From sequence record OQ349392.1: a DNA stretch of 64,000 nucleotides; one strand, written 5' to 3'. This DNA is from Escherichia phage KIT06. Both the position numbers and the translations under genes were made by a program. This document shows positions 35,407 through 36,235 of the stretch, piece by piece. The number at the start of each line of letters is the position of its first letter. Within the stretch, counting starts at the first letter, position 1. The notes under the pieces were generated by a model. The model was given only the letters and a program-made list of their open reading frames with translations. It made no database searches and was not told the DNA's origin.

Positions 35407-35479
35407 TGGGAATTAGCCAAGTTGGTAAGGCATAGCACTTTGACTGCTAGATGCAAAGGTTCGAGTCCTTTATTCCCAG
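35407..35479 (+). tRNA. tRNA-Gln (anticodon UUG)
   Basis: Cloverleaf folded by hand: acceptor tgggaat/attccca, anticodon loop ctTTGac, T-arm aaagg-ttcgagt-ccttt. Confidence 0.85.
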
Positions 35480-35480
35480 C

Positions 35481-35567
35481 GCGAGAATGGTCAAATTGGT
35501 AAAGGCACAGCACTTAAAATGCTGCGGAATGATTTCCTTGTGGGTTCGAGTCCCACTTCTCGCACCA
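35481..35567 (+). tRNA. tRNA-Leu (anticodon UAA), type II, CCA encoded
   Basis: Acceptor gcgagaa/ttctcgc, anticodon loop ctTAAaa, long variable arm. Confidence 0.85.
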
Positions 35568-35572
35568 AATTT

Positions 35573-35647
35573 GCGGATATCGTATAATGGGCATTACCTC
35601 AGACTTCCAATCTGATGATGTGAGTTCGATTCTCATTATCCGCTCCA
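35573..35647 (+). tRNA. tRNA-Gly (anticodon UCC)
   Basis: Acceptor gcggata/tatccgc, anticodon stem tcaga/tctga, loop ctTCCaa. Confidence 0.85.
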
Positions 35648-35657
35648 ATTTAATTTA

Positions 35658-35731
35658 CTCCGTGTAGCTCAGTTTGGTAGAGCGTCTGCTTTGGGAGCAG
35701 AATGTCGCAGGTTCAAATCCTGCCGCGGAGA
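35658..35731 (+). tRNA. tRNA-Pro (anticodon UGG)
   Basis: Acceptor ctccgtg/cgcggag, anticodon loop ttTGGga, T-loop ttcaaat. Confidence 0.8.
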
Positions 35732-35733
35732 CT

Positions 35734-35823
35734 GGAGGCGTGGCAGAGTGGTTTAATGCACCGGTCTTGAAAACCGGCAGTCGCTCCGGCGACTCATAGG
35801 TTCAAATCCTATCGCCTCCGCCA
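35734..35823 (+). tRNA. tRNA-Ser (anticodon UGA), type II
   Basis: Acceptor ggaggcg/cgcctcc, anticodon loop ctTGAaa, long variable arm. Confidence 0.85.
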
Positions 35824-35828
35824 GTTTT

Positions 35829-35904
35829 GCTGATTTAGCTCAGTAGGTAGAGCAACTCACTTGTAATGAGAAGGTCGGCGGTTCGATTCCGTCAATCAGC
35901 ACCA
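35829..35904 (+). tRNA. tRNA-Thr (anticodon UGU)
   Basis: Acceptor gctgatt/aatcagc, anticodon loop ctTGTaa. Confidence 0.85.
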
Positions 35905-35905
35905 A

Positions 35906-35980
35906 GGCCCTGTAGCTGGAAGGTTCAAGCAAGCGACTCATAATCGCCAGATGGTGGTTCAATTCCACCCAGGGCCACCA
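35906..35980 (+). tRNA. tRNA with anticodon CAU (Ile by lysidine modification as in T4, or Met)
   Basis: Acceptor ggccctg/cagggcc, anticodon loop ctCATaa. Confidence 0.8.
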
Positions 35981-35989
35981 AATTAATTT

Positions 35990-36076
35990 GGGGAGTTATC
36001 CCGTAGAGGTAGCGGTGTGGACTGTAAATCCATTGTCATTGCGACTCGGGTGGTTCGACTCCATCACTCCCCACCA
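35990..36076 (+). tRNA. tRNA-Tyr (anticodon GUA), type II
   Basis: Acceptor ggggagt/actcccc, anticodon stem gtgga/tccat, loop ctGTAaa, long variable arm, T-loop ttcgact. Confidence 0.7.
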
Positions 36077-36080
36077 ATTT

Positions 36081-36155
36081 GGATGTGTAGCTCAATGGCA
36101 GAGCGATCGCCTGTTAAGCGATTGGTTATAGGTTCGAATCCTATCACGTCCGCCA
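36081..36155 (+). tRNA. tRNA-Asn (anticodon GUU)
   Basis: Acceptor ggatgtg/cacgtcc, anticodon stem atcgc/gcgat, loop ctGTTaa, T-loop ttcgaat. Confidence 0.75.
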
Positions 36156-36159
36156 AATC

Positions 36160-36235
36160 CGAGGCATAGCTCAGAAGGAAGAGCAAGGACCTTCTAAGTC
36201 CTAGGTCGTAGGTTCGATCCCTATTGCCTCGACCA
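36160..36235 (+). tRNA. tRNA-Arg (anticodon UCU)
   Basis: Acceptor cgaggca/tgcctcg, anticodon stem aggac/gtcct, loop ctTCTaa. Confidence 0.85.

Follow-up and report, generated by a model that had tools for sequence, protein, structure and literature searches.

Ten tRNA genes at one locus of phage KIT06

We analyzed a 64,000-nucleotide stretch of the genome of Escherichia phage KIT06 (sequence record OQ349392.1), referred to here as the window, and focused on a compact array of tRNA genes that includes genes for tRNA-Tyr and tRNA-Asn. The region is that of a Tequatrovirus (T-even) phage. ARAGORN returned exactly ten tRNA genes from the 64-kb window, all on the + strand and all between 35407 and 36235, in the order Gln (UUG), Leu (UAA), Gly (UCC), Pro (UGG), Ser (UGA), Thr (UGU), a tRNA with a CAU anticodon, Tyr (GUA), Asn (GUU) and Arg (UCU) (Table 1). 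The Rfam RF00005 covariance model, which is independent of ARAGORN, detected the identical ten genes, all of them at or above the gathering score of 29 bits; nine scored 59-74 bits (E 2e-10 to 2e-14), tRNA-Tyr being the exception. The intergenic spacers within the array were 0-10 nt, the CCA end was encoded by all genes but Gln and Pro (8/10), and the G+C content of the array was 49.5% compared to 36% for the window. An earlier sequence-only reading of this DNA had folded ten contiguous cloverleafs by hand, with this order and these anticodons, and had placed Tyr and Asn between the CAU tRNA and tRNA-Arg. Both programs gave the same ten genes and the same placement, and both supported the Tyr and Asn cloverleafs. 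That reading had also given phage T4 eight tRNAs and neither Tyr nor Asn, which was correct: ARAGORN found eight at the T4 locus and eight are given in Table 2 of Petrov et al. 2010 (PMC2993671).

Table 1. Features of the tRNA locus of phage KIT06 and its surroundings, in window coordinates
Feature	Position	Strand	Basis
Candidate MotA-type middle promoter: TTTGCTTTA, 12-nt spacer, TATTAT; ~70 nt upstream of tRNA-Gln	35311..35337	+	by eye
tRNA-Gln (UUG); no encoded CCA; 0-nt spacer to tRNA-Leu	35407..35480	+	ARAGORN; Rfam 66 bits
tRNA-Leu (UAA), class II	35481..35567	+	ARAGORN; Rfam 59.3 bits
tRNA-Gly (UCC)	35573..35647	+	ARAGORN; Rfam 63 bits
tRNA-Pro (UGG); no encoded CCA	35658..35732	+	ARAGORN; Rfam 70.2 bits
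tRNA-Ser (UGA), class II; holds the weaker SegB site	35734..35823	+	ARAGORN; Rfam 62.6 bits
Weaker SegB site GGTTCAAATCCTATCGCCTCCGCCAGT, in tRNA-Ser	35799-35825	+	match to the description in PMC2330249
tRNA-Thr (UGU); final tRNA of the part shared with T4; 96.1% identity to T4 Thr	35829..35904	+	ARAGORN; Rfam
CAU tRNA, T2/RB14 allele, most likely tRNA-Ile2	35906..35980	+	ARAGORN; Rfam; alignment
tRNA-Tyr (GUA), class II, variable arm GTC-ATTGC-GAC, C12xC23 D-stem mismatch	35990..36076	+	ARAGORN; Rfam 30.2 bits; cloverleaf; covariation
tRNA-Asn (GUU)	36081..36155	+	ARAGORN; Rfam 74.1 bits, highest of ten
Preferred 27-bp SegB recognition site GGTTCGAATCCTATCACGTCCGCCAAA; tRNA-Asn T arm through CCA plus 2 nt	36131..36157	+	reconstructed from PMC2330249
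tRNA-Arg (UCU), T2/RB14 allele; 50% identity to T4/T6 tRNA-Arg	36160..36235	+	ARAGORN; Rfam
116-amino-acid open reading frame, counterpart of T2L trna.2	36252..36602	+	ORF list; phrog_3355 (E 4.5e-54), function unknown
Homologue of the T4 stable-RNA region (RNA species I and II, rnaC/rnaD)	36603..36941	+	alignment with T4, RB14 and G29

The CAU tRNA was identical to its T2 and RB14 counterparts, 98.7% identical to that of an rV5-like phage, 76% to E. coli ileX and 61% to the T4 tRNA-Ile. Its anticodon stem-loop (GCGACTCATAATCGC) was the same as that of ileX, and the acceptor stem (GGCCCTG/CAGGGCC) carried the pairs C4-G69 and C5-G68 in the cloverleaf. These two pairs are reportedly determinants for TilS, as described by Ikeuchi and colleagues in 2005. 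The gene is most likely a tRNA-Ile2 whose C34 is predicted to be modified to lysidine and to read AUA, rather than an elongator tRNA-Met, a judgement based on comparison with ileX. The RB14 record labels this gene tRNA-Ile, and the equivalent gene was named tRNA-Met in 2008 (PMC2330249).

The tRNA-Tyr gene is supported by covariation

The Rfam score of tRNA-Tyr was only 30.2 bits against the gathering threshold of 29 (E 0.028). Folded as a cloverleaf the gene gave a bacterial class II tRNA whose anticodon is GUA, with A73 as discriminator and an extended variable arm, and its sole defect was the C12xC23 mismatch in the D stem. The low score, the mismatch and the report that the tRNA-Tyr of phage T6 is less stable than that of the host (PMC13096335) could together indicate a false positive or a decayed pseudogene, but this is extremely improbable given that ARAGORN also made the call and given the pattern of base pairing in related genes. 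The copies from the window, RB14, G29, T6, rV5-like, T5-like, Felix O1-like and Jiaodavirus phages were aligned with E. coli tyrT. Across these eight phage genes and tyrT 94.4% of the cells were paired, and compensatory changes on both sides were present in 12 of the 24 pairs. None of 500 shuffles attained any of five pairing measures, and pairing fell to ~50% when the partner columns were slid.

Pair 12-23 was unpaired (CxC) in all eight aligned phage copies while the neighboring pairs covaried, and was a normal C-G only in E. coli. Because it is unpaired in every phage sequence, rather than sporadically, C12xC23 is on this alignment a conserved peculiarity of the phage tRNA-Tyr lineage and not a sign of decay. 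The mismatch may relate to the lower stability reported for the T6 tRNA-Tyr. The window tRNA-Tyr was 100% identical to that of phage 132, 98.9% to those of T2 and RB14, 97.7% to that of T6 and 62% to E. coli tyrT. The T6 tRNA-Tyr has been detected on northern blots and rescued infection when used in rescue experiments (PMC13096335). The covariation and the near-identity to this expressed gene rule out both a false positive and a pseudogene.

A tRNA cassette alternates with the segB cassette of T4

T4 carries Gln-Leu-Gly-Pro-Ser-Thr in common with the window, at the same genomic position and in the same orientation, and window 35301-35917 (the first ~620 bp of the query) matched T4 at 95.3%. 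Alignment of the two phages showed homology that continued past tRNA-Thr for 12 nt into the CAU tRNA, broke, and resumed after tRNA-Arg. Within the break the place of Tyr and Asn is taken in T4 by segB, which is 666 bp long and encodes a GIY-YIG homing endonuclease, and T4 has other alleles of the two flanking tRNAs (61% identity between the CAU tRNA and the T4 tRNA-Ile, 50% between the two tRNA-Arg genes). Because the CAU and Arg tRNAs differ in allele from those of T4, the alignments indicate that a whole cassette of ~330 bp, CAU-Tyr-Asn-Arg, alternates in the population with the ~860-bp Ile-segB-Arg cassette of T4, and that the difference is not an insertion of two genes.

T6 has a mosaic of the two arrangements. 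It combines a T4-type Ile with a spacer and tRNA-Tyr like those of the window (the spacer before Tyr has one difference), then segB starting exactly at the start of tRNA-Asn, and a T4-type Arg. In T6 segB thus replaces tRNA-Asn, and T6 also has no tRNA-Pro or tRNA-Ser, whereas the window has all three. The T6 segB is labeled 'serine recombinase' in AP018814.

The arrangement with Tyr and Asn is widespread and already described

The prevalence figures given here are BLAST coverage counts in one phage collection and not a curated census. A 1-kb query spanning the array (window 35300-36300) matched 899 phage records, 399 of them with at least 80% coverage. The 174-bp Tyr and Asn block was covered to at least 80% in 447 records, T2, RB14 and RB10 among them, and the T4 segB segment in 131, with 188 records showing any match to segB. 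Most often, then, a Tequatrovirus has the Tyr and Asn block, and T4 represents a minority state.

The published record agrees. Brok-Volchanskaya et al. 2008 described the tRNA regions of T2L, RB1 and RB3 as having tRNA-Met(CAU), Tyr, Asn and Arg and no segB (PMC2330249). Petrov et al. 2010 listed ten tRNA genes for RB3, RB14, RB18, RB26 and LZ2, or 5 of 12 T-even genomes, with eight in T4 and RB32, nine in T2 and RB51 and seven in T6 and RB15 (PMC2993671). ARAGORN reproduced the eight of T4 and the nine of T2; for T6, seven tRNAs are annotated in the record and ARAGORN found six, missing Thr. The ten-tRNA arrangement, including Tyr and Asn, is therefore already known, having been described in 2008 and tabulated in 2010. 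The sequence-only reading had proposed a lineage-specific gain of Tyr and Asn, and this did not hold up against ~447 records with the block, 131 with the segB segment, and 5 of 12 T-even genomes at ten tRNAs in 2010.

The annotations of RB14 (FJ839692) and phage 132 list the identical ten tRNAs in identical order, with the anticodons of the window and without segB. Compared to T2 and RB14 the identity of the cassette tRNAs was 100% for CAU and Asn, 98.9% for Tyr and 97.4% for Arg; the window Asn was also 100% identical to that of G29, and 62% to E. coli asnT. The window Tyr has C40 where T2, RB14 and T6 have U40. T2 has no tRNA-Thr and has an ORF (trna.1) in its place, while the window has Thr and not that ORF. 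RB14 does not have the 116-amino-acid trna.2 ORF that the window and T2 have after tRNA-Arg. The ORF in place of Thr in T2, 402 bp long and misannotated 'tail sheath monomer', is probably the trna.1 of T2L.

An eleven-tRNA variant is found in G29 (vB_EcoM_G29), which has the ten tRNAs of the window in the same order plus tRNA-His. The tRNA-His(GUG) lies in a 190-bp insert between Asn and Arg (2855-3048 of the extracted G29 locus) that the window does not have. The insert was found at 95% identity or more in ~200 Tequatrovirus records and was 91% identical to the His region of Karamvirus PG7.

The preferred SegB site is intact in the window

SegB is a GIY-YIG homing endonuclease that cuts inside tRNA-Asn (PMC2330249). 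In crosses of T4 with T2L, segB was inherited by 99.6% of the progeny and the T2L markers by 0.4%, and ~1250 bp of T2L were excluded, comprising Met, Tyr, Asn, Arg and the ORFs trna.1 and trna.2 (PMC2330249). The SegB sites were reconstructed from the consensus GGTTCRANTCC...CCAR and five positions that distinguish Asn from Ser (G6, A16, G18, A26 and A27) given in the same paper (PMC2330249). All five stated differences fit the reconstructed sites, and the preferred site was intact in the window tRNA-Asn and the same as in phages of the T2L/RB14 type. The SegB motif RAWTSGAAC was present in it at 36132-36140 on the - strand. Across the whole window this motif had 10 matches against 6.5 expected, showing no window-wide enrichment; four of the ten fell on T-arm sequences, one of these in the downstream rnaC-like region and the other three within the tRNA array.

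Since the preferred site in its tRNA-Asn is intact, KIT06 is predicted to be a SegB-sensitive recipient. The T4 state, with its segB cassette, spreads by SegB homing (PMC2330249), and in a mixed infection with T4 the phage would lose its CAU-Tyr-Asn-Arg cassette. The missing Tyr and Asn of T4 would then be a consequence of the segB-linked cassette and not of a special gain in KIT06. We infer that the eight-tRNA state of T4 is probably the derived one. A recent, lineage-specific insertion of the two genes into a T4-like eight-tRNA array, for which the absence of both from the eight tRNAs of the reference phage T4 speaks, is very unlikely: the flanking CAU and Arg alleles differ from those of T4, the block is in ~447 records including T2, RB14 and RB10, other Tevenvirinae genera also have Tyr and Asn within their tRNA clusters, and the T4 state is accounted for by SegB homing (PMC2330249). 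In its simple form such an insertion is ruled out by the CAU and Arg alleles in the alignments with T4, T6 and T2.

Related tRNA genes in other phage families

The tRNA-Tyr gene was 96.6% identical to the copy of an rV5-like phage, 84% to a Felix O1-like, 80.5% to a T5-like and 79% to a Jiaodavirus copy, compared to 62% for E. coli. Most of the aligned phage copies had the ATTGC variable loop; the T5-like tRNA-Tyr, from a different phage family, has the same variable arm as the window. In the rV5-like phage RudolfGeigy (Vequintavirus) the CAU tRNA was 98.7% and Tyr 96.6% identical to those of the window, while Thr, their neighbor in the window, reached only 75%, and in RudolfGeigy CAU and Tyr did not lie side by side (1506-1592 and 2077-2151 of its extracted locus). 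This pattern suggests recent exchange of single tRNA genes between phage families.

The tRNA clusters of Karamvirus and Jiaodavirus include Tyr and Asn at what is, by neighbor annotations, apparently the corresponding locus, a further point against lineage-specific gain. The Tyr of these sister genera was of the same lineage as that of the window and their Asn was not (53-55% identity). The cluster of Enterobacter phage AS6 (Karamvirus; 1512-3059 of the extracted locus) comprised Tyr, Ile GAU, Glu, Asn, Asp, Met, Gln, His, Ser and Trp, and that of Klebsiella phage KP182 (Jiaodavirus; 1503-2779 of the extracted locus) Tyr, Lys, Asn, Asp and Met. In both clusters homing-endonuclease genes were interspersed and tRNA-Asn had an extra arm and a length of 85 nt. 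Among the T-even phages, the accessory Tyr, Asn and His tRNAs are all G34-U35-N (queuosine-family) tRNAs.

Supply of tRNA-Tyr and tRNA-Asn

Amino acid demand was sampled from 69 long non-overlapping ORFs of the window (17,463 codons) and from 41 ORFs that were selected likewise in 50 kb of E. coli K-12. Tyr accounted for 4.41% of the window codons compared to 2.56% in the E. coli sample (1.72-fold) and Asn for 6.15% compared to 3.75% (1.64-fold), the top two phage to host ratios among the 20 amino acids. The codon TAT was used 33.6 times per 1000 codons in the window and 14.0 times in E. coli (2.4-fold), and AAT 45.1 and 13.5 times (3.3-fold). Enrichment was similar on both strands, in early-direction as in late-direction genes. 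The suggestion in the sequence-only reading that the two tRNAs reflect codon usage, for which it had pointed to the late genes, was thereby strengthened. The anticodon loops of Tyr (CUGUAAA) and Asn (CUGUUAA) were the same as in E. coli tyrT and asnT, and because of this the two tRNAs are judged to add supply and not new decoding. Most likely they are normal elongators that enlarge the Tyr and Asn pools and meet an unusually high phage demand. Escape variants with changes in the anticodon loop were reportedly described by van den Berg and colleagues in 2023; escape by this route is ruled out for the window, its Tyr and Asn loops being the same as those of the host.

Supply also bears on defense. 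Septu EcB88 (PtuAB) blocks T6 by cleavage of tRNA-Tyr in the variable arm (Chihara et al. 2026, PMC13096335). T6 plating was restored by overexpression of tRNA-Tyr or by amplification of a 718-bp Tyr-segB unit, T6 was sensitized by deletion of the tRNA region, and T4, which does not have tRNA-Tyr, was unable to escape Septu (PMC13096335). The T6 tRNA-Tyr was itself cleaved by Septu and the rescue was a dosage effect (PMC13096335). Retron-Eco7 has the same PtuAB effector and is countered by the tRNA-Tyr of SP15, a T5-family phage, and of T5; SP15 is rescued from it by whatever functional tRNA-Tyr is placed under a strong promoter (PMC11555353). The window tRNA-Tyr has two differences from that of T6, each a stem pair that is G-U in place of G-C or the reverse by the change G-C to G-U, and its variable arm, where Septu cuts, is identical. 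A variable loop resistant to Septu is ruled out, as the T6 tRNA-Tyr with the same arm is also cleaved (PMC13096335). The SegB-driven amplification of Tyr in T6 is unavailable in cis to KIT06, which has no segB. The sequence-only reading had raised escape from host anticodon nucleases as a reason for the extra genes. A role in defense stood, as it has been shown for the near-identical T6 tRNA-Tyr (PMC13096335), and the mode of escape did not: Septu PtuAB cuts the variable loop and not the anticodon, and phages escape by replenishment rather than by a resistant sequence (PMC13096335, PMC11555353).

For tRNA-Asn the one candidate nuclease is AriB of the PARIS system, which cleaves E. coli tRNA-Asn between positions 40 and 41 within U36AAUC (PMC12409363). 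At this determinant the window tRNA-Asn reads U36-A-A-G39-C40-G41 compared to U36-A-A-U39-C40-C41 in the host, and the window tRNA-Thr reads U36-A-A-U39-G40-A41 at the equivalent positions. In T5, tRNA-Lys, Thr and Asn act against AriB and a change at position 39 contributes to the resistance of the tRNA-Lys (PMC12409363); the window tRNA-Asn likewise diverges from the host around 39-41, which is suggestive, and only suggestive, of AriB evasion. The Tyr and Asn tRNAs would buffer translation by mass action when defense nucleases deplete these tRNAs. Such buffering has been shown for tRNA-Tyr against Septu (in T6) and retron-Eco7 (in SP15), and for tRNA-Asn against PARIS AriB we only infer it.

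Weighing the explanations

We hold with good confidence that the window array is the ordinary majority form of the T-even cluster, of the T2L/RB1/RB3/RB14 type, and that alternation of cassettes and the supply function described above probably account for it. Several points weigh against this. One copy of the tRNA-Tyr gene gives only partial protection, because the T6 tRNA-Tyr is cleaved and wild-type T6 is still restricted by Septu (PMC13096335). tRNA-Asn alone cannot neutralize PARIS, because the main target of the system is tRNA-Lys(UUU) (PMC12409363), which KIT06 does not encode. The tRNA-His gene of ~200 relatives is unexplained by demand, His being the least phage-enriched amino acid (0.60-fold), and the ratios of 1.72 and 1.64 for Tyr and Asn are relative to a single 50-kb E. 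coli sample with ORFs chosen by length, not to a curated proteome. Expression, aminoacylation and any fitness effect of the window Tyr and Asn tRNAs are presumed from near-identical genes. Finally, an ancestral Tequatrovirus could have acquired the cassette by transfer, given the CAU and Tyr identities to the rV5-like phage (98.7% and 96.6%).

Translational demand may also be the whole explanation, with an AT-rich phage proteome that over-uses Tyr and Asn and nuclease protection as an incidental effect. The over-representation of both amino acids and of TAT and AAT, its presence on both strands and the host-like anticodon loops, which leave supply as the only contribution, are all in keeping with this. 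On the other hand, Lys was the third most enriched amino acid (1.55-fold) and yet there is no phage tRNA-Lys, the ~200 relatives have added tRNA-His though His is under-used, and T4 and ~130-190 other phages manage without both tRNAs. In addition, deletion of the T6 tRNA region alters sensitivity to Septu and overexpression of T6 tRNA-Tyr alone rescues (PMC13096335). We regard demand as the sole cause as possible but rather unlikely.

The converse is that the genes are mobile counter-defense genes, a phage-borne lineage of tRNA-Tyr, and perhaps of Asn and His, that circulates between unrelated coliphages with codon usage secondary. The tRNA-Tyr of rV5-like, Felix O1-like and T5-like phages resembles that of the window far more than E. 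coli tyrT does, eight phage copies share C12xC23 and most share the ATTGC loop, which would fit such a lineage. Septu and retron-Eco7 attack tRNA-Tyr and phage tRNA-Tyr rescues (PMC13096335, PMC11555353), tRNA-Asn is unlike that of the host at the AriB cleavage site, and the accessory Tyr, Asn and His tRNAs are all G34-U35-N. Against this, the T6 tRNA-Tyr is sensitive to Septu and a single copy is not sufficient for escape (PMC13096335), no defense system is known to be neutralized by a tRNA-Asn of the window type, and the pattern among the accessory tRNAs was noticed after the fact. This explanation also seems possible, with the odds against it. A broader version is more doubtful still: the accessory T-even tRNAs would be a horizontally circulating counter-defense module rather than an adaptation to codon usage, and SegB and its relatives, which cut tRNA T-arm sequences, would be the vehicle of exchange.

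Transcription unit and downstream region

The candidate promoter upstream of tRNA-Gln (Table 1) is a sequence that we take to resemble the MotA-box consensus of T4, and it shares bases with the stop codon of the ORF before it. A sigma-70 promoter scan from the upstream ORF to tRNA-Gln gave nothing convincing. Because of the tight spacing of the genes and the T4 precedent, the array would be transcribed as one polycistronic tRNA precursor, from a promoter upstream of tRNA-Gln to a hairpin after the rnaC/rnaD-like region. The precursor would be processed by host RNase P and exonucleases, and the CCA-adding enzyme would complete Gln and Pro.

The trna.2 ORF downstream of tRNA-Arg was present in T2, phage 132 and G29 and absent in T4 and RB14. 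The first 21 nt of T2L primer #24 (PMC2330249) matched 36254-36274, with one mismatch in the remainder. PHROGs placed the neighboring ORFs all in families of unknown function. The best match to window 28000-48000 in the phage collection was phage EP01 (97.9% identity, 92% coverage, in seven pieces), which makes the genome a mosaic Tequatrovirus that is identical to no record of that collection.

The 340-nt region that follows trna.2 was non-coding, and ~240 nt of it hardly varied between the window, T4, RB14 and G29, with a variable patch at ~36650-36700. It has a tRNA-like T arm (GGTTCGAATCC) at ~36841-36851 and ends in a GC-rich hairpin (GCCCCGACC-GAAA-GGTCGGGGC) followed by five T residues (36915-36941). 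A terminator scan did not flag this + strand hairpin, though it is obvious by eye. Rfam, including a permissive search of 36236-37100, gave no family for the stable-RNA region and only matches at chance level. The T4 rnaC/rnaD stable RNAs are not known to have a function. The names RNA species I and II and rnaC/rnaD come in part from PMC2330249. At the equivalent place in G29 ARAGORN called a 94-nt 'tRNA-Lys(ttt)' (3657-3750 of the extracted locus), and it made no such call in the window.

Significance

As a discovery the array carries little weight, since the literature already covers the arrangement, the difference from T4, the SegB explanation and the T-even tRNA-Tyr that counters Septu, and hundreds of genomes have the same array in their annotation. 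T4 is the textbook reference and yet has the minority state at this tRNA locus, which makes a difference from T4 a poor criterion of novelty here. For the phage itself, the intact site in tRNA-Asn marks KIT06 as a predicted SegB-sensitive recipient, and its tRNA-Tyr predicts that it would be better buffered than T4 against defenses that cleave tRNA-Tyr.

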